DNA of 64,000 nt from an uncultured delta proteobacterium (GTDB taxonomy: Bacteria > Desulfobacterota > Desulfobacteria > Desulfobacterales > B30-G6), in NCBI GenBank assembly GCA_963823335.1, contig CAWGLD010000001.1, positions 320,001-384,000 on the forward strand. The letters run 5' to 3'. The notes below the pieces were generated by a model, which saw only the letters and a program-made list of their open reading frames with translations, was not told the origin of the DNA and did not search any database. Every line of letters begins with the position of its first letter. Position 1 is the first letter of the stretch. Position numbers and translations under genes: made by a program. Of the stretch, positions 5,329 through 64,000 are shown piece after piece.

Positions 5329-5890
5329 ACGACATGTCATGGGATTTTTTAAGAACGAAGATCACGTGGTTTCAGCGCTTGAGGCATTGAAGACCTCTCC
5401 CTATGAATTCGTTCGCGTCAACACCCCCATCCCGAGCCATAAGATCATGCAGGCCTTGAACTTGAAGAAAAGCAAGGTGGGCTGGTTTACCCTCTGCGGC
5501 GGGATTATAGGATTCATAAGTGGATTTGGCCTGGCTGCTTTCACCGCCACACGCTGGGATCTGATTGTCAGCGGCAAACCCATCATGGCCATCATTCCCT
5601 TTGTGGTGGTGGGTTTCGAAGCAACGATTCTCTTTGCCGTGTTCGGAAACGTAATCGGGCTTCTGACCCAGATGCGGATGCCGAACAATAAATGGCTGCA
5701 GTATTATGATCCGCGTTGTTCTGGAGAGCATTTCGGTGTTCTGGCCGCCTGCGAAGCCCATCAGGAAAATGGCCTGCAAAATTTCTTCAGGGAACGGGGA
5801 GCGGAGGTAAGAATTTGGATCACCTCCAAAGGGGTCGATCCAAATGAAGGGTTCGAGGATTCGAGGGTTCAAGGGTCCGTGGGTAGCTGA
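5318..5890 (+). CDS. actD: Alternative complex III subunit ActD (DUF3341-like)
   Basis: TPIP...H motif, two TM helices with VSGKP...P..VGFE, YDPRCS, position after actC. The C-terminal ~14 aa derive from an octamer repeat. Confidence 0.85.
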   Translation: MPHERHVMGFFKNEDHVVSALEALKTSPYEFVRVNTPIPSHKIMQALNLKKSKVGWFTLCGGIIGFISGFGLAAFTATRWDLIVSGKPIMAIIPFVVVGFEATILFAVFGNVIGLLTQMRMPNNKWLQYYDPRCSGEHFGVLAACEAHQENGLQNFFRERGAEVRIWITSKGVDPNEGFEDSRVQGSVGS

Positions 5891-6000
5891 CAGCTATCAG
5901 CGGACAGTAGCACTTGAACCCTGGATTCCTTGACCCCTTGAACCCTTTATCCCAATGAATTGGGAGAAGAACCAACTTGTTCAACACTGGATAAACCCAT

Positions 6001-10044: not shown

Positions 10045-10218
10045 GAGCAGGGTTCGAGGGTTCAAGGGTGATACAAGGGTTGGAGGGTAAGCCCTTAAGC
10101 GATAAGCAGCTTACCGCTTAAGGTTTATAGCTTGAACCCTTCAATTTAAATTACACAACGTGTTAGGATGGTTAAAGTTTTAGATATCAACTACGAGCTA
10201 TGAGCTGTAAGCAACAAC

Positions 10219-10308
10219 AAATAACGCGCGAAGCGCTAATGTCGTCCGTAGGACAAATGACGCACGCAGTGCTAATGACATCCGAAGGATAGATGACGCC
10301 TGAAAGGC
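10219..10308 (+). repeat. GNA mini-hairpin tandem array, copy 1 (5 units, 18-bp period)
   Basis: GCGC-GAA-GCGC, GTCC-GTA-GGAC, GCAC-GCA-GTGC, ATCC-GAA-GGAT and GCCT-GAA-AGGC, separated by 7-nt WAATGWC-like linkers. Confidence 0.9.
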
Positions 10309-10312
10309 AACT

Positions 10313-10573
10313 ATGTACTTCCCCTATTACATCGCCTATATGACGGCCGGTTTTGTCATTACCCTTGTGGTGTTTTTCTGGGCCTTGAACCAGGGTCAAT
10401 TCAAGGACCAGACGCGTGCACGCTTCATACCCCTTGAAGCCGATGGCAATACCAAACCGGTAAAGGCTTCACGATTTGCCCGGCTGGAAACCATCGCGCT
10501 GTTCACACTAGTGGGTATCGGGCTGGCGGCATCGGCTGCCGTTGTCACTTTTGCGCTGCTAAAGGCATTATAA
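10313..10573 (+). CDS. ccoS: cbb3 oxidase maturation protein CcoS-like
   Basis: TM helix followed by FFWALNQGQFKD (CcoS W-A-x-x-x-GQF-x-D motif); located in the cco cluster. Confidence 0.8.
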   Translation: MYFPYYIAYMTAGFVITLVVFFWALNQGQFKDQTRARFIPLEADGNTKPVKASRFARLETIALFTLVGIGLAASAAVVTFALLKAL

Positions 10574-28174: not shown

Positions 28175-28291
28175 TTTTTGCCTCCTGTTTTGCAATACGA
28201 ATAAAGCCGTTAATATTTTGACACGATGCGTTATGACCTTTAAGATTCTTCTCCCAAGCAGTTGGGAAAAAGGGTTCAAGGGGCCCAGGAT

Positions 28292-30040
28292 TCAAGGGTT
28301 CAAGTGTTTGTTTTCCAAGGAAACCATTATCTTTAAAAATTCATTTGGTTCTATATAATCTACCACCCGCAAATCATTTCGCTCACGGCCTGAGGGGTCC
28401 AGGAATACGACCGTTGGAACACCTTTGACCTTGTATTTACGTAACAGGTGGTCATAACTTTGACGGTCCTTTTTAGTAAGATCCACTTTCACCATGACAA
28501 ATTCCTCTTGAGAAAGCTTGACGATATCCGGATGATGAAATGTAATCTGGTCCAACTCCCGGCATGGCGCACACCAATCAGCATAAAAATCGATGATCAC
28601 CGGTTTATTATTTTCTGCTGATTCCGCCAAAAGCCGGTCCGAATAATTGTGCCAGTAGACAGACGGTCCTTTGACCATTTGGTTGCCGATCAGAACGATT
28701 CCCATCACCAGGCAAACGGTGCCAATGATAGATTTTATCCAGGCAAACGAACGGAAAGTCGCTGCGCTTTTATCCAGCCATCCCAGATGAACACCGGCTG
28801 TAATGACAATGGTGGCAAGGATATATTTCTGTAGGACCCATGGCAGAATTGGCCGGATAAAGTAGGCGGCCATCCCGATGAGTACCCATCCCATGAGCCG
28901 TCGCACCCAATTCATCCATTCGCCGGATTTTGGCAGCTTTGCCAGTTGACCTGAAAACAATGCCAGGACAAACAAAGGTGTGCCCAATCCCAGGCTTAAA
29001 ATGAAAAAAATGACAAATCCAACCAGCGGGTCGCCAATTGCTGCAACCCAGGTCAGAAGCCCCAGCACGAAAGGACCGATACATGGTGCAGCCACCACAC
29101 CCAAGGTTATCCCCATGAAAAAGGAGCCAAAAAATCCCGTGTAGGATTTGGAGGCTGCCTGGGTCAGCCAAAAGGGAAGCCTAAGTTCCCAAAATCCGAA
29201 AAGACTCATGGCAAAGGCAGTCATCACTGATGCGATCGCAATCAGCACCAGAGGGTTTTGAAGTAATGCACCGATTAAACCTCCTGTGAGAGCTGCGATT
29301 ACACCCAGTAACGAGTTGGTTAGTGCCAATCCCCCAATGTAGCAGATACCGTGTCCGATAAGTCCCCGTTTACCCTGAGTGCTTCTTCCACCGAAATATG
29401 AGACTGTGATGGGGATCAGGGGATAGACACAAGGTGTGAGGTTCAACGCAAGACCACCGGCGAAGACACCCAACAGCGTCCATAGAAGTGCCCAACCAGA
29501 TAAGGAGAGATTCGATTCGGAAGGGGTCGTTTTTGATAACGGGTTCAATTTGCCCTGGGCGACCGGAAACCCTTTTGATTGCCAATGAGGATATCCTTCT
29601 GGATAGCGATATACATTTTGATACCCTAATTCTACGGCTACCCGAGCCGCCGAGTCGCTGCGGACTCAAGCCAGGCCCGCTCAGTAAAAAACAATCGTTT
29701 TTTCCTTATCTGGCCCAAGAAACGCTTTCAATTCCCCTTTTTTCTGCCATCTTGCCCACCACGTAGGTTCAATGGGGAAATTTACACTCTCGGCTATGTG
29801 GCCGGCACGGTGCTCCCATTCCTGGCGTGTGTCTACCAGCAGGATCTTTTCCTGATTTGACGGATACAGTTTCGACAGCGCATCAACATCTATCAGCCGA
29901 TAGCCACCGTTTTCGGCCTCCTGTTCAACTTGTGCCATGTTCGATACCACTATTGGCACCGGCAAATTGGAGTACCAGAGGACCAACACGGTAATTGAGA
30001 CGGCTAAGCATGGCAGAAGGATGGATCGAAAAATTTTCAT
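28292..30040 (-). CDS. Rhodanese-DsbD(TM)-thioredoxin fusion, putative selenoprotein with UxxxxU motif, 582 aa
   Basis: IVFY-TGA(29681-29683)-AGLA-TGA(29666-29668)-VRSDSAARVAVELGYQNVYRYPEGYPHW completes the rhodanese domain and continues in frame into DsbD (LTPCVYP, APC.GP, WCAPC). Confidence 0.85.
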
Positions 30041-31413: not shown

Positions 31414-32109
31414 TTAAAACCGAAATCCCTTCCAGATAAAATACATACCCATTACCATCATCAAAACAGCACCGATCTGGTATACTTTTTCGCGCTGCCG
31501 CAACCAACGCAGATCCGTGAGTCTCGACACCAGAAAAAGCGCCGGCATGGTGCCGAAACCAAAACAGAGCATGAGACCCGCCCCGGAAAACACACCGCCC
31601 AGAGTGGTGTCTGCCTCCATTCCTGAGCGTGCAGCCGCAAGCAGGGCGGTATAAACCGGCCCGCAGGGCAGCAGCCCGAGAAGCAGTCCGAGAGGTAGAT
31701 ACATCAGGGGATGCTTCTTTTTCTGCAGCAGCTTTTTAAAAGCCCCGCTGATGAAGGTGCCAACCGGGGGCGCCGCCCGGAAGATGATACCGCTTGGCAC
31801 CCAGCCGGTCATTGCCAGACCCATCAGGATGATAAGGACACCCGCAGCCACCATGACCCCTTTTTGCAAACCATCGATACTTTCTGCAAAACGGGTGAAG
31901 GAGGCCATGCCACCTACGATTGCACCCAGGAGACCATAGGTCAGGGTTCGGCCGGTAGTGTAAAACAGATGGGGCCAGACCGATGGAGCACCCTTTAAAT
32001 TCAGTGAAAGCGAAATGACGATGGGCCCACACATACCGATACAGTGCCCGAAACCGATGCTAACACCGGTTGTGAAGAAGAGAATATATATGGAACTAGT
32101 AGACAACAT
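31414..32109 (-). CDS. DsbD_2/TauE-like membrane protein (cbb3/Cu maturation-associated)
   Basis: GHCIGMCGP, GRTLTY, GLLPCGPVY and FGFGT.P motifs. Confidence 0.85.
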   Translation of the reverse strand: MLSTSSIYILFFTTGVSIGFGHCIGMCGPIVISLSLNLKGAPSVWPHLFYTTGRTLTYGLLGAIVGGMASFTRFAESIDGLQKGVMVAAGVLIILMGLAMTGWVPSGIIFRAAPPVGTFISGAFKKLLQKKKHPLMYLPLGLLLGLLPCGPVYTALLAAARSGMEADTTLGGVFSGAGLMLCFGFGTMPALFLVSRLTDLRWLRQREKVYQIGAVLMMVMGMYFIWKGFRF

Positions 32110-32542
32110 TGAAAGTGAATACAACGCTGCCGATATCCGGCAGGGTGATCGTGGCCTGCCAGATGGTTTTGCCACTTTTGCAGCGGACGATTACCCCCTG
32201 GCCTTCATATATGGCCGCGTCGTTTTTTGTGAGTATGACCTGGTTCGGTCCCATTTTCATACCGGGCATACCCAAATCGATAAAGGGTGGTTTCGAAAGC
32301 GGATCCCCGCTTATCTTGACCTGAAATATCAAGTCCTTCATGGCTTTCACGGGTTTGGGAAAAATGTTCAGATCGACGGTCCTGTTGTCGATCTGCTTCC
32401 GGCAGCCGCCTGACTGGATATCGCAATCCACAACGTCTTCCGCTGCCAGACTAACGCTGCTATGGCAAACTGAAAGGATCAGAAGGGCGAGAAACAGGAC
32501 ACGCATACCTGCCAGGTGGGAATTGAATCTACATGTTCTCAT
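32096..32542 (-). CDS. Exported YtkA/FixH-like protein, possibly Cu-binding
   Basis: Signal peptide; CDI..GGC, LGMPGMKMG and RC.SG..W motifs; GGAGG RBS. Confidence 0.6.
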   Translation of the reverse strand: MRTCRFNSHLAGMRVLFLALLILSVCHSSVSLAAEDVVDCDIQSGGCRKQIDNRTVDLNIFPKPVKAMKDLIFQVKISGDPLSKPPFIDLGMPGMKMGPNQVILTKNDAAIYEGQGVIVRCKSGKTIWQATITLPDIGSVVFTFNVVY

Positions 32543-32559: not shown

Positions 32560-32710
32560 CAGTTCGTACAACATTAGGCCTTCGGCTGATATTTGGCCAT
32601 TGCCCTTCATGCCTCACTTGTCCTGCCGGACGACATTTTCGCCATGCACGGAATTTATTGTGCCCCATGGCCTAGGGCTTACCTAAGACGTAAAACCTAA
32701 AACTTAACAC
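32560..32710 (-). repeat. GNA mini-hairpin array, degenerate copy 2 with leader
   Basis: Reverse complement: ...TTTTAGGTTTT...GGTAAGCCCTAGGC...CAATAAATTCC...AAATGTC-GTCC-GGCA-GGAC...AAATATC-AGCC-GAA-GGCC-TAATG. Confidence 0.6.
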
Positions 32711-34228: not shown

Positions 34229-34392
34229 GCGTCATTTGTGGTCATTTACTTCGTGTCATTATAGATGGTTTTAGGTTTTAAGTGTGAAGTAAACCCCAAG
34301 CTACGAGCCATTAGCGGCAATAAATTACGCCCGCAGGGCAAATGACCATAAATGACAGCCGAAGGCGAAATGACGCACGAAGTGCGAATGAC
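34229..34392 (+). repeat. GNA mini-hairpin array, copy 3, with leader and upstream inverted GTCATT linkers
   Basis: GCCC-GCA-GGGC, AGCC-GAA-GGCG, GCAC-GAA-GTGC. The leader GTAAACCCCAAGCTACGAGC...GGCAATAAATTAC is shared with the reverse complement of 63360-63410. Confidence 0.85.
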
Positions 34393-34414: not shown

Positions 34415-36127
34415 ATGAAGTTTGTTGATGGAATGCGACGCATGCGCGGCATTCGAAGGCTGGGACATATCTCCCGTATCATGCTGAAGCATGGACTCGG
34501 TGATTTCACGGACCGGCTGTTCAAACAAGACTCGAATGGCATTACAACACCGGATAAGACCGAATACCCTCTGAAATCAGGATTCCCATCTCCTGTCAGA
34601 ATCCGAAAGCTACTCGAAGAACTGGGCCCCAGTTTCGTCAAGCTGGGGCAATTGATGAGTACCCGGGCGGATATTTTTCCACCCGAATACATCCAGGAAT
34701 TCATCAAGTTGCAGGACAGTGTCCCACCGGTATCCTTCCAAGAAATACGGAAAGTGATCGAAGGGGATTTCGGGCAGAATCTCGATGATATTTTTAAGTC
34801 TTTTAACACCGAATCCATGGCGGCAGCCTCTGTTGCGCAGGTCCATATGGCAGAACTGCATACCGGTGAAAAAGTAGCCGTAAAAATTATCCGGCCCGGG
34901 ATCGAAAAAAAAATCAGGCAAGACATTGGACTGATGCTCACACTGGCCGAGAAACTGGAGCGTAAATTCGATATTGGAAGAAAAATTGGCTTTATCAACC
35001 TGGCACGCGAATTTGAGCGAACCATTTTCAAAGAACTGGACATGCTGACCGAGGCGGGCCACATGGAACGCTTCTCCGGCTATTTCAAGGAAAGCCATGA
35101 AATGGTCATCCCCAAGGTTCATTGGGCCTACACCTCCAGGTCGGTTCTGGTCATGGAGCATATCGACGGAATCAAAATGGATCAGGTCGAAACCATGCGG
35201 GCACATGGTATCGATCCCAGGGAAATTGCCATGATCGGGCTGCGAAGCTTCTCCCGCCAACTGATGGAATTTGGTCTATTTCATGCCGATCCCCACCCGG
35301 GAAACACCATTGTGATGTATGACGGTCGCGTGGGCCTGGTGGATTTCGGGATCACGGGTTATCTGGACGAAGAGTCCATGATGCAGATTGCCAATATTTT
35401 TCTCGGATATGCCGAGCACGATTACGTTATGATCGTTGAGGCATTTGCGAGCGCCGGTCTCATCGACCCGGAACACATCGATATGGATGCCTTTCGTATC
35501 GATCTCAAAGACATCAGCGAACCCTTTTATGGAAGATCGTTGAAAACCATCTCCGCCAAAGATGTGTACGACCAGGTAATGCAGGTGGTGTTGAAACACC
35601 AGATCCGCCTGCCGAGAAATTATCTGTTACTGCTCAAAACCTTTATCCAGACCGAAGCCCTGGGAAAAATCCTGGACAGCGATGCCAACCTGCTGGAGGT
35701 AACCAGGCCATATGCCAAGACACTTCTGGAGCGGGGTTACGATGCACAGAAAATACTCAACAGCATGGGACGGGATGCACGATACTTCAGCGGCTACATG
35801 CGTCTGGTACCGAAGTTCCTGCACGATATTTTAAAAATGACGGCCCGGGGCAAACACCGGATTGAAATACAGCATACCGGCATCCAGGGTATGGATGACA
35901 AACTCGAAAAAGGCCTTAACCGACTCGTTCTGGGTATGGTGATTTCCGCTTCTCTGATCGCCGCGGCACTGGTACTCAACGCAGCCCAGGGTTTGATGGA
36001 ATTCAATATCACTCTGTTAAGCCACACCCTCTCCATGACAACTCTGCTGGGTCTCACGGGTTACTGCCTGGCGACATTTCTCGGTCTTTGGCTGGTGATA
36101 TCGATATTTCGTTCGGGAAAGCTTTAG
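34415..36127 (+). CDS. ubiB: UbiB/AarF (ABC1) atypical kinase
   Basis: LGPSFVKLGQ, AAASVAQVH, VAVK, FHADPHPGN, DFG; two C-terminal TM helices. Confidence 0.9.
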   Translation: MKFVDGMRRMRGIRRLGHISRIMLKHGLGDFTDRLFKQDSNGITTPDKTEYPLKSGFPSPVRIRKLLEELGPSFVKLGQLMSTRADIFPPEYIQEFIKLQDSVPPVSFQEIRKVIEGDFGQNLDDIFKSFNTESMAAASVAQVHMAELHTGEKVAVKIIRPGIEKKIRQDIGLMLTLAEKLERKFDIGRKIGFINLAREFERTIFKELDMLTEAGHMERFSGYFKESHEMVIPKVHWAYTSRSVLVMEHIDGIKMDQVETMRAHGIDPREIAMIGLRSFSRQLMEFGLFHADPHPGNTIVMYDGRVGLVDFGITGYLDEESMMQIANIFLGYAEHDYVMIVEAFASAGLIDPEHIDMDAFRIDLKDISEPFYGRSLKTISAKDVYDQVMQVVLKHQIRLPRNYLLLLKTFIQTEALGKILDSDANLLEVTRPYAKTLLERGYDAQKILNSMGRDARYFSGYMRLVPKFLHDILKMTARGKHRIEIQHTGIQGMDDKLEKGLNRLVLGMVISASLIAAALVLNAAQGLMEFNITLLSHTLSMTTLLGLTGYCLATFLGLWLVISIFRSGKL

Positions 36128-59223: not shown

Positions 59224-60387
59224 TTAAAATATATAATTCGATATGATCTCCTTCATTATCTCGGTGGTGCCGCCGCCGATGGACAGAATCCGGTTGTCCC
59301 GAAACAATCTTTCCACCAGATAACCACGCATGTATCCGTAGCCGCCGAATATCTGGACCGCATCATAGGTAACCTTGTCGCTAACACTGCAGGCAAAGTT
59401 TTTTGCCATGCTGATCTCTTTGATCTGGCTCTTTCCGGCATCGATCTTGGCTGCGATCCGGTAGGTAAACTCACGGCTGGCTTCCACAAGCGTTGCCATA
59501 TCCACCAGTTTGTGCCTTGTCACCTGGAATCCTTTCAGTTTCCTGCCGAAAGCATCCCTTTCCCCGGCATAGGCGATCGCCGATTCCAGGGCCAGCTGGG
59601 CCGTCATGTTGGCCATGATCGCCAGGGCCAGTCTCTCACCTTGAAAATTTTCCATGATGGTGTAAAAACCGGCGTTTTCTTCCCCCAGCAAATTTTGTAT
59701 CGGCACGCGACAGTCATCAAAAAAGATCTGGGCTGTGTCCGATGCCCACCAGCCCGTTTTTTTGTACTTTTCAGAAACAGAATACCCCGGGGTTTTCGAT
59801 TCGATGACCAGAAGACTGATGCCGTGGGCACCGGTTTCTCCGGTTCGCACAGCACAGGTGATCTGATCTGCCCGGTATCCGCTGGTAATGAACACCTTGC
59901 TTCCATTGACCCGGTAGTAATCTCCTTCCTTGACGGCTGTTGTCTGCAAATTAGCCACATCCGAACCCCCGCCCGGTTCTGTTATAGCAAGTGCCGATAT
60001 TTTTTCTCCCGCCAGAACCGGTTTTACAAACCGTTCTTTCTGGGATTCGGTTCCGGACGACAGGATCGGAGGGATAGCGATATTCAGGCTGCCCAGACCC
60101 GCCACCAGACCACCGGACCCCGAGCGCATCAGTTCCTCGGACACGGCGATGTGAAAAAAAATGTCTCCGGGTATGCCACCGTATGCTTCGGGATATCCCG
60201 TACCGAGAATACCTACCGTCGCTGCTTTTTTATAGAGCTCACGTGGGAATTCACCGGCTTCCTCCCAATCGTCTATAAAGGGAAGAATCTCCTTGTCGAC
60301 AAAGGCCTTGACCGATTTCCGCACCATGTCGTGGGCTTTGCCGAAGTATTCCTGACAACCTGCCTTGGCATTGAATTTGTAGGGCAT
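59224..60387 (-). CDS. Acyl-CoA dehydrogenase (AtuD-like)
   Basis: ALAITEPGGGSD, NGSKVFITSG, FQGERL, QIFGGYGY, IGGGTTEI. Confidence 0.92.
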   Translation of the reverse strand: MPYKFNAKAGCQEYFGKAHDMVRKSVKAFVDKEILPFIDDWEEAGEFPRELYKKAATVGILGTGYPEAYGGIPGDIFFHIAVSEELMRSGSGGLVAGLGSLNIAIPPILSSGTESQKERFVKPVLAGEKISALAITEPGGGSDVANLQTTAVKEGDYYRVNGSKVFITSGYRADQITCAVRTGETGAHGISLLVIESKTPGYSVSEKYKKTGWWASDTAQIFFDDCRVPIQNLLGEENAGFYTIMENFQGERLALAIMANMTAQLALESAIAYAGERDAFGRKLKGFQVTRHKLVDMATLVEASREFTYRIAAKIDAGKSQIKEISMAKNFACSVSDKVTYDAVQIFGGYGYMRGYLVERLFRDNRILSIGGGTTEIMKEIISNYIF

Positions 60388-60432
60388 TATATAATTTTCT
60401 CCCAAATAGTTGAGGATACGGGGTCAAAAATT

Positions 60433-60605
60433 TGTCATTTGCTTCGCGTCATTAATAGTCATTTACTTCGTGTCATTTATTGCAGCTGTGAGCAATCAGC
60501 TAAGAGCTACAATAAATAACGCGCGAAGCGCTAATGACGTCCGCAGGACTAATGTCACGCGAAGCGTAAATGACGCCCGTAGGGCTCGTCCGAAGGACAA
60601 ATGAC
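60433..60605 (+). repeat. GNA mini-hairpin array, copy 4; overlaps the 3' end of the atuA-like gene
   Basis: GCGC-GAA-GCGC, GTCC-GCA-GGAC, ACGC-GAA-GCGT, GCCC-GTA-GGGC, GTCC-GAA-GGAC; upstream GTCATT cluster. Confidence 0.88.
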
Positions 60606-62366
60606 CCTGGGTACGTCAACAACCTTGGCTCGCAAATATTCTCCCAATGTTTTGGCCTGGGGGTCACTCCTCAGGGATGCGGCCACCCCGTCGCCCAGTA
60701 AGCCTTTGATGTAGAAATTCAAGGCCAGGAGATTGGGCAGTTCATAGCGCTCGATTTCAAAATCGGCCAGATCCGCGAGAAGTATTTTCAAGCGTTCCAC
60801 CGACAAAAATTCCCGTAAAAAGGCAAATGCGTCCGGTGTCTTTGCCCAGACACCCAGGTTGGCATTTCCGCCCTTGTCTCCGGAGCGGGTGGCAAACAAT
60901 TTTCCAAAAGGCACTGAAATGGTTTCTCCATCCGGAACCGATGGGATGGGTCTTGTCTGAGGCGGTCCGGCATCCAGGGTTTCTCCCGGGACAAGAGCTT
61001 TCACAACAACCTCCTGGCCATCGACAAAAACGTGCTGTTGGATATGTTCGTTGGACACCAGTGCCGGCCAGTGCATGATCGCCGGGACACCTTTGGTGGG
61101 GGGGGCTGTGGCCGTAAAACCGGGGATACTTGCCAGCGCCAGTTCCACCAGCTTCGAGGAAAACAAGGCCACTTTTTTGGGGTCCGGATCCATGACCGAA
61201 ATACGCAGATGTGCAAAAGCCTCTTCATTGGTTCGGGGATTTTTCTTTTCCGAGCGAACTAACTGCACATCCACCACTGAAAACAGTTTTTCCCCACCCA
61301 GACTGTCAAAGAGGGCTTCTGTCACGATCCGGGCCTTTTTCTCGATATCGAGTCCGGTCAGGACGATGGTCATGCTGTTACGATACCCCCCCAGGTTGTT
61401 GATACAGACCTTGGTGGTGCGGGTGGGGGGTTCCCCCTTGACGCCTTGAATACGAACCCGGTCAGCATCTTCCTGAAAAATATCGATGGTATCGAAACGG
61501 GCGATCACATCCGGTGTCAGATATCTGGGTTCCCGGACCTCATACAGCAGCTGAGCGGTTACCGTTCCAACCGAGACAAGCCCGCCGGTGGCAGGATGCT
61601 TGGTAATAACCGAGGACCCATCTTTTTCAAGCTCTGCAATAGGAAATCCCACATTTTTGAAAGAGGGTACTTCCTCAATAAAAGCGTAATTTCCTCCGGT
61701 TGCCTGAGCGCTGCACTCGATCACGTGACCGGCCACCGCCGCGCCCGCCAGCGCATCCCAGTCTGTCTTCTCCCATTTGAATTGCCAGGCTGCGGGTCCC
61801 ATGACCAGCGCTGCGTCGGCAATGCGCCCCCCCACAACGATGTCCGCGCCGTGATTCAGCGCCTCCACGATGCCCCAGCAACCCAGATACGCATTGGCTG
61901 AAATTGTCTGCGCCCTGGCATCTCTCAAGGCGATGCCCTTGTCCATGTGGGTAAAAGATTCTCCTTTGCCCTGAAGGTCCTGCAGTCTCTGCATCAGGTT
62001 GTCACCTTCGATATAGGCAATTTTGGGATGAAGACCCAGTGTGCTCGCGACCTTCTCGAGTTCCCTGGCAAGTGACCCCGGATTGAGACCCCCTGCATTG
62101 ACGACAACCCTGATACGCCTGTCGAGACACTCCCCCATGACAATTTCCATCTGCTTCAAAAATGTCGTGACAAAACCCGCCTGCGGGTCCTTGAATTGTT
62201 TGCGAAGCAGGATGGCCATGGTCAGCTCGGCTAAGTAATCACCGGTCAGAAAATGGATGGGACCACCCTGGACCATCTCCTGTGCTGCAGAAAACCTGTC
62301 ACCGAAAAACCCGCTGCAGTTGGCAATGATTAATTTTTCATTGTATAGCTTATATGTCTCATTCAT
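60555..62366 (-). CDS. atuA: Acyclic terpene utilization AtuA-family protein
   Basis: IANCSGFFGD, DYLAELT, NAYLG, GHVIEC..QATGGN, RSGDKG, DPQAKTL. Confidence 0.88.
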   Translation of the reverse strand: MNETYKLYNEKLIIANCSGFFGDRFSAAQEMVQGGPIHFLTGDYLAELTMAILLRKQFKDPQAGFVTTFLKQMEIVMGECLDRRIRVVVNAGGLNPGSLARELEKVASTLGLHPKIAYIEGDNLMQRLQDLQGKGESFTHMDKGIALRDARAQTISANAYLGCWGIVEALNHGADIVVGGRIADAALVMGPAAWQFKWEKTDWDALAGAAVAGHVIECSAQATGGNYAFIEEVPSFKNVGFPIAELEKDGSSVITKHPATGGLVSVGTVTAQLLYEVREPRYLTPDVIARFDTIDIFQEDADRVRIQGVKGEPPTRTTKVCINNLGGYRNSMTIVLTGLDIEKKARIVTEALFDSLGGEKLFSVVDVQLVRSEKKNPRTNEEAFAHLRISVMDPDPKKVALFSSKLVELALASIPGFTATAPPTKGVPAIMHWPALVSNEHIQQHVFVDGQEVVVKALVPGETLDAGPPQTRPIPSVPDGETISVPFGKLFATRSGDKGGNANLGVWAKTPDAFAFLREFLSVERLKILLADLADFEIERYELPNLLALNFYIKGLLGDGVAASLRSDPQAKTLGEYLRAKVVDVPRVICPSDEPYGRHLRFA

Positions 62367-62383
62367 GAATAGACTCCTTCACA

Positions 62384-62505
62384 GCCATTTAGCCTTCGGA
62401 CGGCATTTGCGCTACGCGCGATATTTACGCTGCGCGTGTCATTCGCCCTATGGGCGTCATTTGCACTGCGTGCGACATTAGCGCTTTGCGCGTAATTTAT
62501 TGTAG
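62384..62505 (-). repeat. GNA mini-hairpin array, copy 5 (6 units, 18-bp period)
   Basis: Minus strand: GCGC-AAA-GCGC, GCAC-GCA-GTGC, GCCC-ATA-GGGC, ACGC-GCA-GCGT, GCGC-GTA-GCGC, GTCC-GAA-GGCT. Confidence 0.9.
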
Positions 62506-62555
62506 CCCATGGCTTATAGGTAGTTTTGAAGATCAAATCGTTACACGATTTGATC

Positions 62556-63215
62556 TTATTTAATCAAATTCCGTATGCCCCCCACGATAAAATCGACGGC
62601 ATCATGCCCGAGTGTCGTCAAGTCCTTTGAGCGGTTCTGCCATATGAGATACTGATAGGCAATCCGTTCATACATGCCCATGATACTGACCGCCATGACC
62701 TCAGCTGAAAATTCACTTTGATAACGGACCCCGAGATTGTCGCTCACCTTGAGCAATGCCATTTGAACGTCTCCGATGAGTTTGTCGAAGATCTTTTTTC
62801 TGTGCATCTCCATCTGCTGGCTTTGACCCGCCGATTCCCGAAAAAAAATAGCCACTTTCTCGGGATACCTGGGGCAGAACTCCTCGAAAAAAATAATCCC
62901 GGCCTGTTTAAAGCCCTCGATGCTCCCATCCGCATTTTTGAACTCCCGACCCAGAAGGTCGCGAAGTTGATACCCTATTTTTTCGAGCATCTGTAGCATG
63001 AGGTCTTCCTTGTTTTTAAAATAAAAATACACCGTTCCCACAGAAACCTCGGCAAGATCGGCAATCTCTTCCATACCTGTTGTATGATATCCTTTGCGGG
63101 CAAAAAGATTCTCCGCCGCCGCCAGGATGGTCAGATAGCGCTGTTCCCTTTCACGTCGTCGCCTCAGTTCGCTGCGCGTTGGTGCCTTTTGTCCTGATTT
63201 TTCCATTAAAATCAA
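62556..63215 (-). CDS. TetR/AcrR-family regulator (start TTG 63215 or ATG 63206)
   Basis: ILAAAENLF..KGY..T.MEEIA..AEVSVGTVYFYFKNKEDL. Confidence 0.92.
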   Translation of the reverse strand: MILMEKSGQKAPTRSELRRRREREQRYLTILAAAENLFARKGYHTTGMEEIADLAEVSVGTVYFYFKNKEDLMLQMLEKIGYQLRDLLGREFKNADGSIEGFKQAGIIFFEEFCPRYPEKVAIFFRESAGQSQQMEMHRKKIFDKLIGDVQMALLKVSDNLGVRYQSEFSAEVMAVSIMGMYERIAYQYLIWQNRSKDLTTLGHDAVDFIVGGIRNLIK

Positions 63216-63242
63216 ATTCTCCCTGCCAGGTAACTTTCAGGT

Positions 63243-63428
63243 GTCATTTGCGCTTCGCGCGTTATTACGCCTGCGGCTGTCATTTGTCCTGCGGACGACA
63301 TTAGCGCTTCGCGCGACATTTCGCCTTCGGCTGTCATTTATGGTCATTAGCCCTTCGGGCGTAATTTATTGCCGAGAATAGCTCGTAGCTTGGGGTTTAC
63401 CTAACACTTAAAACATAAAACCTAACAC
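63243..63428 (-). repeat. GNA mini-hairpin array, copy 6 (6 hairpins) with leader
   Basis: Minus strand: leader, then GCCC-GAA-GGGC, AGCC-GAA-GGCG, GCGC-GAA-GCGC, GTCC-GCA-GGAC, AGCC-GCA-GGCG, GCGC-GAA-GCGC. Confidence 0.9.
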
Positions 63429-63451
63429 CTTGTTTTTCCCCTCCAACCCTC

Positions 63452-64000
63452 CTAGTACCCCAAGGCCTCATCCCCGAGCTTGACCCTGGCGATTTCAGTG
63501 GAGGTTCCCGCTATCTGGGCATACTTGGCACACCTGTAGGCACATTCGGCCTTGTTTCCGGTCCGGTATCCGGTGCCGGAAAGCACCTGCAGGGCCATAC
63601 TGGCAACCTTTTCAGCGGACTCGGTGCAAAAAACCTTGGCACACAGCGTCAGACTGCCGCCTTGTGTCCGGCTTATATCGGAAGACCAGGCCGCCCGAAA
63701 AGCCAGAAGTCGGGAGGTCTGGTACAAGGTCAGCATTTCAGCCAGTTTGAAGGCCACCTCCTGGTAGGCAATAATTGGTTTTCCGCCTGTACGGTGTGTA
63801 TTGGCGAATGTTTTGGCCGATTCAAAAGCAGATTTCATCATCCCAAGACTTGCCCCTATGAGAATCTGGTTCTCCCACAGTCGGAGCGTTTCTAACACCT
63901 GGGCCTCCCCTGGTGGTAGAATAATTTTCCCGGGCAGCACGCTGCAGCGCTCCAGTCGAAGACCGGAAATGGCAACATTTTCATAACCAAGGGTGGCGAT
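63452..64000 (-). CDS. Acyl-CoA dehydrogenase-like protein, C-terminal part (runs off window end)
   Basis: GKPIIAYQEVAFKLAEM, AKVF.TE, QVLSG.GY, IAGTSTEI; frame is open to 64000. Confidence 0.85.
   Translation of the reverse strand: MATLGYENVAISGLRLERCSVLPGKIILPPGEAQVLETLRLWENQILIGASLGMMKSAFESAKTFANTHRTGGKPIIAYQEVAFKLAEMLTLYQTSRLLAFRAAWSSDISRTQGGSLTLCAKVFCTESAEKVASMALQVLSGTGYRTGNKAECAYRCAKYAQIAGTSTEIARVKLGDEALGY

Follow-up and report, generated by a model that had tools for sequence, protein, structure and literature searches.

Open reading frame (ORF)-bearing intervening sequences (IVSs) of 23S rRNA, of which the Coxiella burnetii IVS with its S23p ORF is an example, are described in the accessible part of the source as selfish, horizontally acquired elements in which a long stem encloses a PF05635-type ORF; RNase III excises the IVS from the RNA, and the ORF tends to decay (PMC4990558). 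[quoted passage not shown] Here we describe a family of arrays of 18-bp mini-hairpin units that has something of both. The arrays were recognised in a 64,000-nt stretch of DNA from an uncultured delta proteobacterium of the Desulfobacterales, referred to as the window (positions 320,001 to 384,000 of contig CAWGLD010000001.1, or G000:C1:320001-384000, where G000 denotes the genome of 4.37 Mb in 11 contigs). On balance, we favour the explanation that they form one arm, studded with hairpins, in a family of small insertion elements, complete members of which carry a PF05635 four-helix-bundle (4HB) gene.

The ORF-bearing 23S rRNA IVS appears to be the closest functional analogue. Complete relatives of the window arrays likewise enclose a PF05635 gene between inverted arms, and the G000 copy has decayed, in line with what the accessible part of the IVS source reports (PMC4990558). 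Unlike the IVSs, no copy examined is inside 23S rRNA; all are found between protein-coding genes or at their ends. Each arm repeats a hexamer word in tandem, with GNA mini-hairpins separating the words, and most copies are gene-less. BrickBuilt is the closest structural analogue that we found in print, being intergenic and multi-copy, with a leader and a variable number of short tandem units (PMC4596501). The differences, compared by description only and within the available text, are that its bricks are 23 nt long and not described as covarying hairpins, that it belongs to one species whereas the AATGAC family spans phyla, and that its segments have promoter activity (PMC4596501), whereas no promoter-like site was found in the leaders of the AATGAC arrays.

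Two better-known classes of repeat had been set aside when the arrays were first noticed, and the features that we tested indeed fit neither. Repetitive extragenic palindromes (REPs) and REPINs are imperfect palindromes of 20-40 nt, often in inverted doublets and associated with RAYT genes, and CRISPR loci consist of identical 23-50 nt repeats with unique spacers of similar length. The arrays share with REP, BIME and REPIN elements their short GC-rich palindromes, their dispersed and clustered intergenic placement and, probably, their transcription with operons. They differ in having head-to-tail 18-bp units with a 7-nt linker and an 11-nt hairpin of 4-bp stem, without inverted doublets, a conserved 5' GTAG-type tetranucleotide or RAYT linkage. 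Unlike CRISPR, the period is 18 bp and what varies is a self-complementary 11-mer, of which 13 types recur. The unit core C-GNA-G does resemble the DNA mini-hairpin d(GCGNAGC), with an exact GCGAAGC inside GCGCGAAGCGC, although the natural examples in the accessible part of the review are single hairpins at phage and plasmid priming sites and promoters, not chromosomal arrays of dozens (PMC13037366). The shorter GCGAAGC and GGCGAAGCC spacers of other phyla share this likeness.

A repeat of covarying mini-hairpins

All six arrays named in the sequence-only reading are present in the window, and the proposed unit, a 7-nt linker (A/T)AAT(G/A)(A/T)C followed by an 11-nt hairpin, was confirmed. Tandem Repeats Finder called periods of 18 or 36 at four of the six. 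Genome-wide, strict linkers AAT[GA][AT]C were spaced 12 nt apart in 152 pairs, against 6-34 pairs for each of the other spacings from 9 to 15 nt, and 100 of the 152 12-nt spacers form a perfect 4-bp stem, for which chance is 1 in 256. The strict scan returned 319 units and 45 arrays from the genome; a 2-Mb first-order Markov simulation run as a control gave 56 units and no array. Among the 203 family-like units of the 45 arrays, 166 have perfect stems, of 13 types. GNA loops account for 167 of the 203, the commonest loops overall being GAA (96), GCA (52) and GTA (15), followed by AAA (10), GATA (7) and GGA (4), and a C-G pair closes the loop in 123 of 150 linker-defined units, so that C-GNA-G, as had been pointed out at the start, is a genuine DNA mini-hairpin motif here. 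The linker core ATGAC occurs in 97 of the 203 units. The arrays are a real and statistically solid repeat. An initial detector with relaxed unit rules and a loose pattern for the linker were dropped as their matches were mostly due to chance. A coding role was also rejected: the 18-bp period leaves two frames open, yet units of 10 and 19 nt occur and unit number varies.

Covariation was measured on 150 of 182 distinct 18-mers, chosen only by a linker on each side and comprising all 16 window units and 134 random ones from the fetched loci of relatives and other phyla; positions A2, A3, T4 and C7 of the linker are invariant in this alignment through its construction. Paired cells made up 89.0%, compared with 59.0 ± 1.4% after shuffling, a value that none of 500 shuffles matched, and the covariation score was 0.729 compared with 0.209 in the shuffles. 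Sliding the partners by 1-3 columns left 10.7-46.7% of cells paired. Changes on both sides were found in all four stem pairs. Covariation, on whose persistence the sequence-only reading had staked its claim, thus survives in a larger alignment.

The arrays also share surroundings. In 32 of the 45, CAAYNA stands immediately before the first unit, which agrees with the shared leader that had been proposed. Unit order does vary among copies, as had been claimed, though not freely: 28 of the 45 arrays begin with GCGC, which is followed by GTCC 22 times, and GTCC is followed by GCAC 13 times. Upstream and on the same strand lie AGCTnnnAGC words (33/45), GGGTT-type words (18/45) and GGTTTTA-type words (13/45); complementary words downstream are nearly absent (1/45). 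At least two copies of GTCATT, the reverse complement of the linker word, lie upstream of 16 of the 45 arrays.

Two-arm anatomy and a four-helix-bundle cargo

In other phyla the design has GTCATT words and spacers of 4-6 nt as its left arm, then a short loop, and AATGAC words as its right arm, and examples of it were read in Bacteroidales, Rikenellaceae, Calditrichaceae and Saprospiraceae records. Among the stretches listed from other genomes, at least 114 in number, 62 of 67 pairs have an AATGAC cluster within 153 nt after a GTCATT cluster; the converse arrangement was found 12 times, always with at least 93 nt between the two. The two-arm anatomy therefore has a polarity, and the right-arm spacers are often GNA mini-hairpins with stems of 2-5 bp, such as GCGAAGC, GGCGAAGCC and GCGCGAAGCGC. 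The strongest arm asymmetry among the loci read was that of a Bacteroidales-labelled locus, L124, in which 42 GTCATT words with a 10-11-bp period, about one helical turn, abut 19 AATGAC words that carry mini-hairpin spacers.

The fourth array of the window has the same anatomy. Its left arm (60423..60482, +) is built of 14- and 10-bp units and ends GTCATTTATTG; the units are the reverse complements of short mini-hairpin units, with GTCATTT words and 7- or 3-nt spacers, and Tandem Repeats Finder called a period of 24. A loop of AGCTnnnAGC words and the leader CAATAAATAAC follow (60483..60520, +), and then array 4 itself (60521..60605, +) with units GCGC, GTCC, ACGC, GCCC and GTCC. Folded as RNA, the stretch 60415-60612 reaches -82 kcal/mol, compared with -50.6 ± 4.1 for shuffles (z = -7.65). 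The predicted structure is one long hairpin in which the left arm pairs with 60510-60605, word to word, and three mini-hairpins are extruded. The description of the arrays as a modular, dispersed element family with structure-preserving stems was therefore partly right; what it took for the element is just one arm of a larger hairpin element. With respect to the features of MITEs, the arrays are small, non-coding, multi-copy and intergenic (45 arrays in 38 co-directional, 4 divergent and 3 convergent gaps), and the arms are inverted arrays of the same word, although, as noted above, an upstream arm of two or more words accompanies just 16 of them. A transposase-encoding parent element was not found.

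The sole cargo found between AATGAC/GTCATT arms is a PF05635 gene, which is present in relatives from other lineages and at one ancestral locus of the genus. Ten 4HB proteins of G000 were searched by tblastn against the 114 loci and matched six of them, in L064, L065 and L069 between or beside the arms and in L091 with a direct AATGAC array on each side. Against PF05635, the ORFs of L069 and L091 score 96.5 and 85.5 bits; the L064 copy is broken. A 64%-identity homologue lies inside a complete cassette in L163 (Calditrichaceae), where a host transporter gene is followed by a GTCATT arm, a Shine-Dalgarno (SD) sequence with the 4HB gene, plain AATGAC words and four mini-hairpin units, the next host ATG coming 20-odd bases later; everything is on one strand, and the flanking genes are two co-directional transporters. 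Inverted arms surround a PF05635 ORF in L069, L163, L166-L169 and the decayed G000 copy.

Within the genus, whose genomes are numbered together with G000, homologues of 54-64% identity are present in G002, G004, G007 and G009, whose partial counterparts are in G005 and G003; at E<=1e-12 the search gave nothing in G001, G006 (83% complete) or G008. All bridged genus copies share one locus, with an aminotransferase-like gene on one side and a gene that starts MKILKIDHLG on the other, and their arms consist of GTCATT/GTAATT/GATATT words with GNA hairpins, for example GCTCC-GCA-GGAGC. The G000 cassette (C1:744966-745226) holds a decayed gene with two TGA stops, and from that of G005 the gene's 3' part has gone, along with the right arm. 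Remnants at the cassette locus are about 35 nt of left arm in G001 and a left-arm remnant with the 5' end of the gene in G008. A maximum-likelihood tree built from 21 4HB proteins groups all rows with AATGAC arms in one clade of nine (support 92/89), which unites AATGAC rows from Bacteroidota, Calditrichota and three genus members with three rows that have other words. The AATGAC label needs two changes on this tree, which only 2 of 500 label shuffles equalled. Total 4HB gene number was rejected as a correlate of the arrays, since G001, which is array-free, has 24.

We know of no role for PF05635, a very common bacterial family, outside diversity-generating retroelements (DGRs). The family is reported, in the part of the source available, to resemble the DGR accessory protein Avd (PMC10053308). 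A further insertion was observed in G007 (L019) between a ccoO/P-like gene and ccoS, upstream of the ccoS array's leader; the word of its arms is a different one, GGATTCCAGG / CCTGGAA, and G000 lacks it. A PF05635 match at this place (G007:C4:127428-127706, 120.2 bits) has one internal TGA and probably marks a broken or interrupted 4HB gene.

Distribution, turnover and orientation

The exact pattern ATGACGCGCGNAGCGCWAATGWC, for which chance would give about 1 match in 596 Gb by a hand estimate, was scanned across phyla in one genome per species and found in at least 114 stretches from 37 assemblies, counted from record titles. Among the matches listed, 23 assemblies are Bacteroidota-type (with labels that include Bacteroidales, Lentimicrobiaceae, Rikenellaceae, Prolixibacteraceae and Saprospiraceae), nine are Desulfobacterales or 'delta proteobacterium', two are Calditrichaceae, and Ignavibacteriaceae, Victivallales and Thioalkalivibrio have one each, the last a 2.7-kb contig for which mis-binning is possible. 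Going by the labels of these metagenome-assembled genomes, the AATGAC word and the GCGC-GNA-GCGC unit are common to at least five lineages. Closer to home, the search of relatives that had been proposed was made with a degenerate GCGC-unit pattern and matched 13 of 41 genomes including G000, all in one family: eight of the nine other species of the genus and four of five genomes from two further genera. It gave no match in 26 genomes of other families in the order, and a reversed-pattern control was negative everywhere. The exact pattern had no match in 2.9 million viral contigs, nor did element 4 in a blastn search of a plasmid collection. Rfam yielded nothing at gathering scores over the whole window and nothing at E<=1 in 60300-63600, and searches of the open-access literature turned up no account of AATGAC/GNA-hairpin arrays, nor any of PF05635 genes within word-array hairpins. 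This is apparently an uncatalogued interspersed element family that extends across phyla.

Within the genus, whole units are gained and lost rapidly at fixed orthologous sites. Upstream of ccoS, arrays are present in four of seven bridged genomes (G000, G005, G004 and G007, but not G001, G008 or G009); they always abut aactATG and range from 5 to 15 units through duplication of two-unit blocks. Upstream of ubiB, four of ten genomes have arrays: those of G000 and G005 are alike, G007 has 18-bp units in both arms and G003 is different. The native SD of ubiB, aaaggctga...ATG, is kept in all genus genomes examined. Between the AtuA-family gene and ACAD, five of six genomes have arrays (G000, G005, G004, G007 and G002, but not G001); here the short 14-bp arm is near-identical in four genomes and the 18-bp arm varies in the number and type of its units. 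The site of array 5 holds an array in G005, and that of array 6 a different unit set in G005; G001 has none at either. A 4.8-kb query spanning three arrays gave 83-128 BLAST matches in four sister genomes and eight, all genic, in G001. The species of G000 thus has at least 45 gene-less copies and its closest relatives have many, whereas the sister species G001 has none. Taken together, the genomes read as an old cassette at one locus, followed by a burst of gene-less copies in one sub-clade and then by rapid whole-unit change at fixed sites. In one RNA-library contig, 54 nt (three units) of array 6 are skipped at 63249-63304. The array L011 (G007:C3:241948-243048) extends over 1.1 kb and repeats a 54-bp GCGC-GTCC-GCAC triple 20.4 times, with about 61 mini-hairpins; the copies are 96% identical, which points to very recent tandem amplification. 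A separate observation concerns the gap upstream of ubiB, which in G002 and G004 (L026, L028) holds unrelated repeats, such as the CACGAAA / TTTCGTG words of G004; this gap is a hotspot for several repeat families.

Array orientation tracks transcription, not replication. With genes taken from a home-made ORF and codon-bias caller (3,681 genes, 83% coding), 32 arrays in co-directional gaps are sense and six antisense (p = 2.4e-5), and the three gap classes are used in the proportions that their numbers predict (p = 0.14). In 36 of the 45, array and downstream gene share a strand, and nine arrays do not face a gene start. The median distance from array end to start codon is 39 nt, and that from the upstream stop to the first unit 98.5 nt. 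Relative to the replication strand, assigned by GC skew with a clean minimum at 1.0 Mb on the 2-Mb contig, arrays divide 22 to 23. In other phyla (82 loci with crude ORFs, 23 arrays at locus edges left unscored), the hairpin arm in co-directional gaps is sense in 35 cases and antisense in 15, or 28:8 when seven elements hairpinned on both arms are taken out. Terminator-like sites, scored as consensus matches, are found in none of the 45 arrays read in the sense direction and in 29 of the 45 read antisense, 14 of the 29 falling where the first GCGC unit meets the T-rich reverse leader. Furthermore, contigs assembled from three metatranscriptome runs extend from coding sequence into arrays at 62170-62425 and 62797-63338.

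Array 1 (10220..10308, +) comprises five 18-bp units with stems GCGC, GTCC, GCAC, ATCC and GCCT, which read from 10220 as aataac-GCGCGAAGCGC, taatgtc-GTCCGTAGGAC, aaatgac-GCACGCAGTGC, taatgac-ATCCGAAGGAT and agatgac-GCCTGAAAGGC. Its leader, read at 10190..10225 (+), consists of AGCTnnnAGC words and then CAACAAATAAC, and the ATG of a ccoS/FixS-like gene follows at 10313, 4 nt past the array end. A TTGCACAACGTGTCAA-like inverted motif lies further upstream of ccoS (window ~10140-10160; L018-L022) in six of seven genomes, with or without an array, and is missing from G001 (L020). Going by the consensus, it may be an FNR/CRP-type box, in which case array 1 would stand between a native regulatory site and the start codon. 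Array 2 (32560..32710, -) is degenerate, with a leader, and lies upstream of the SD and ATG of ORF 32096-32542(-); Tandem Repeats Finder called a heptamer array at 32681-32707 in this region. Element 3 has a left arm of GTCATTT words with short spacers (34230..34261, +), GGTTTTA-type words and a leader ...GCGGCAATAAATTAC (34262..34328, +), a module also present at the same site in G005, and an AATGAC arm, array 3 (34329..34392, +), with units GCCC, a bare word, AGCC/GGCG and GCAC; 22 nt separate it from the ATG at 34415 of an ABC1/UbiB-type kinase gene.

Array 4 is antisense to both of its neighbouring genes. The AtuA-family ORF 60555-62366(-) runs into it and takes its last ~17 codons and stop from the repeat; the gene also stops in the first repeat unit in G004 and G007, and ends in its own sequence in G001. 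On the other side of this gene, array 5 (62384..62491, -) has six to seven units and ends ~17 nt before the SD (aaggag) and ATG (62366); its leader (...GGGCTACAATAAATTAC) was read at 62492..62520 (-). Array 6 (63243..63360, -) has seven units and one bare word and ends ~36 nt before the ATG (63206) of a TetR-family gene, preceded at 63361..63440 (-) by a leader (CGGCAATAAATTAC) and GGTTTTA-type heptamer words, for which Tandem Repeats Finder called a period of 7 at 63399-63430. None of the six window arrays encloses an ORF. Between the TetR and AtuA genes, G005 and G001 have a gene of ~260 codons, presumably enoyl-CoA hydratase-like as judged by eye from its sequence, which is absent from G000 (window 62367-62555); from its presence in the two relatives, G000 appears to have undergone a deletion beside array 5.

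Other small hairpin elements, separate from the arrays, consist of 8-bp word arrays AGGGTTCG facing their complement CTTGAACC at 5848-5884, 5913-5947, 10049-10069 and 28270-28308. They stand right behind stop codons, and on one strand G-runs recur about every 5 nt. G001, G007, G008 and G009 share the one behind the ccoO/P-like gene, which is therefore older than the adjacent mini-hairpin array.

Neither a promoter nor a ribosome-binding site could be assigned to the arrays. The leaders of arrays 1, 5 and 6 have no sigma-70-like sites, and the left arm of element 4 has a single one, in keeping with chance (3 found, 2.8 expected). The terminal GCCTGAAAGGC unit lies at SD distance only at ccoS, and the native SD of ubiB is independent of the array.

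Nature of the element and competing explanations

The explanation that we favour gives the element the general form 5'-(GTCATT + short spacer)n - loop or cargo - (AATGAC + GNA mini-hairpin)m-3'. Complete members would carry a promoter-less PF05635 gene (the 23S-rRNA-IVS protein, Avd-like) between co-directional host genes, and the window copies would be gene-less, non-autonomous derivatives in which a short AGCT-word loop takes the place of the gene, many of them retaining little or no left arm. The element is probably transcribed together with the host operon, and sense orientation may be the one mainly tolerated because an antisense unit presents a GC hairpin with a T-rich tail, which resembles a terminator. 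Where both arms exist they could pair in the transcript, like an rRNA IVS, and become an RNase III substrate; self-folding spacers would hold compact whatever part of the long arm lacks a partner and promote slippage in whole-unit steps. The best reading of the arrays is thus a non-autonomous interspersed element, IVS-like or MITE-like, that is transcribed with host operons.

Whether the structure acts in RNA or in DNA bears on all the explanations, and fold energy cannot decide between the two. According to the accessible part of the review, only GNA loops form the DNA mini-hairpin, with melting temperatures of ~76 °C for N = A (76.5 °C for d(GCGAAAGC)), 73 °C for G, 71 °C for C and 70 °C for T, and standard folding models miss the special stability of the C-GNA-G loop in DNA (PMC13037366). 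GGA is the rarest GNA loop (4/203) though the second most stable in DNA, which counts against a simple stability argument. All three outer pairs are Watson-Crick in 488 of 580 units. For RNA speak the link between orientation and transcription, the promoter-less and co-oriented cargo, the analogy with rRNA IVSs and, weakly, the RNA-library contigs.

Several observations weigh against the explanation that we favour. Only seven of the 45 composites of array and upstream sequence fold with z < -3 (median -1.16), and this, together with the scarcity of upstream GTCATT words, means that most copies cannot form the long hairpin. A lone array is no stabler than its shuffles (z = -0.88 as RNA, -1.83 as DNA), and the RNA minimum-energy fold contains the unit's own hairpin for only 75 of 203 units. 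In the accessible part of the review, r(GCGAAAGC) melts at 39 °C, far below the DNA form (PMC13037366). The 81 single-mismatch units show no wobble tolerance, with 18 G.T/T.G and 17 A.C/C.A mismatches; the missing G.T excess and the weaker RNA loop argue against a constraint purely at the RNA level. The window stems (GCGC, GTCC, GCAC and others) are unlike those of the genus cassettes (GCTCC, ATTCC, GACGAAGTC), and the link between the two is therefore at the family level and not one of recent copying. For none of the gene-less copies did we find a transposase, a target-site duplication or a clean empty site: the empty orthologous sites that had been hoped for proved to be array-free gaps in G001, G008 and G009 that differ throughout, and as the whole intergenic region differs where G001 lacks an array, mobility is deduced from distribution only. 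Finally, the related genomes are non-independent samples, the orientation counts depend on our own gene caller, and the RNA-library contigs may stem from contaminating DNA and do not reveal transcript ends, strand or level.

A bolder form of the favoured explanation, which we regard as unlikely, would make the arrays the cis-acting half of a self-contained 'operon intron' that moves between phyla and is removed from the transcript by pairing of its arms. By analogy with the IVSs, 4HB/Avd-like cassettes would insert in the sense direction into operons and be removed as IVSs are from 23S rRNA, and the comb of mini-hairpins would cap and protect the downstream mRNA fragment or bind the 4HB protein.

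It is somewhat less likely again that the arrays are a host-beneficial RNA module, in which AAUGAC words held between rigid hairpins bind an RNA-binding protein or shield the mRNA 5' end and so regulate many operons, much as a CsrB-type sponge or a 5' stabiliser hairpin would. The proximity of sense arrays to start codons (median 39 nt) would suit such a role, as would the conserved position across species at the ccoS, AtuA and TetR sites and the linker being the most conserved part of the unit (ATGAC core in 97/203), where A2, A3, T4 and C7 were fixed by sampling. The downstream genes, however, are functionally unrelated (ccoS, ABC1 kinase, AtuA and TetR), G001 has no arrays at the same genes, the number and type of units vary freely between sister species, nine of the 45 arrays do not face a gene start, and wobble pairs are not tolerated.

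An immobile satellite is about as improbable. It would have grown in place by replication slippage from single seeds, its stems perfected by mutation and not by selection, for instance through quasi-palindrome correction by template switching. Slippage of this kind is visible in the whole-unit gains and losses, the 36- and 54-bp blocks, the 1.1-kb G007 array and the 54-nt skip in a population contig, and mutational perfection would be consistent with Watson-Crick stems in which wobble is not in excess; transposition footprints were not found. Yet slippage cannot put the same leader and unit repertoire at 45 or more unrelated sites, nor does it explain the same unit in distant phyla, the thirteen stem types connected by both-sided pair changes, or the complete absence of the family from G001 at sites where five relatives have arrays.

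We think it improbable to a greater degree that AATGAC/GTCATT words are iterated double-stranded sites for a DNA-binding protein, perhaps the 4HB protein or a nucleoid protein, with incidental hairpins. The word is the sole feature common across phyla, it recurs in plain arms with a period of 10-11 bp, near one helical turn (42 words in L124), and it tracks the 4HB subfamily. Against this, spacers with 89% pairing and covariation are not incidental, the non-palindromic G-N-A loop keeps one orientation to the word and so suggests folding of a single strand, the 18-bp period of the window arrays does not amount to whole helical turns, and G000 retains 45 arrays despite the decay of its only AATGAC-type 4HB gene.

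Hardly tenable is the single-stranded DNA mechanism offered by the sequence-only reading, in which mini-hairpins folding on the lagging-strand template are the substrate of an HUH/RAYT-type or reverse-transcriptase enzyme encoded elsewhere: C-GNA-G is, in the accessible part of the review, the hallmark of a very stable DNA mini-hairpin with a much weaker RNA form (PMC13037366), GNA loops predominate, G.T mismatches do not exceed A.C and the genome has eight Y1_Tnp (PF01797) genes, but the arrays are oriented by gene and not by replication strand (22 vs 23, on a clean V-shaped cumulative skew), which is not what such a mechanism predicts, GGA is too rare for its stability, no Y1_Tnp gene lies within 7 kb of an array (nearest 7,245 nt) or is flanked by the words (0-4 AATGAC/GTCATT words within 1.5 kb on either side), and RVT_1 matches do not track the arrays (eight in array-free G001, two in G000).

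What is new here is the AATGAC/mini-hairpin family, its 4HB lineage, the ancestral genus locus and the evidence on orientation. The element family, as we read it, brings together a solid repeat, natural arrays of up to ~60 DNA mini-hairpins and a specific 4HB lineage that crosses phyla. Its members can be recognised by a simple word. The intergenic short tandem word repeats of several phyla are unexplained, as are PF05635 genes outside DGRs. In practice, the arrays break short-read assemblies and create spurious ORFs or lengthen real ones, as at the C-terminus of the AtuA-family ORF. They also offer constructs, with arrays in sense or antisense and arms with or without the gene, for work on the processing or insulation of operon transcripts, on 4HB binding and on spread. 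If the cassettes do behave as 'operon introns', the IVSs of rRNA would be one habitat of a general mobile element, and PF05635 would gain a function in the maintenance or movement of the cassette.

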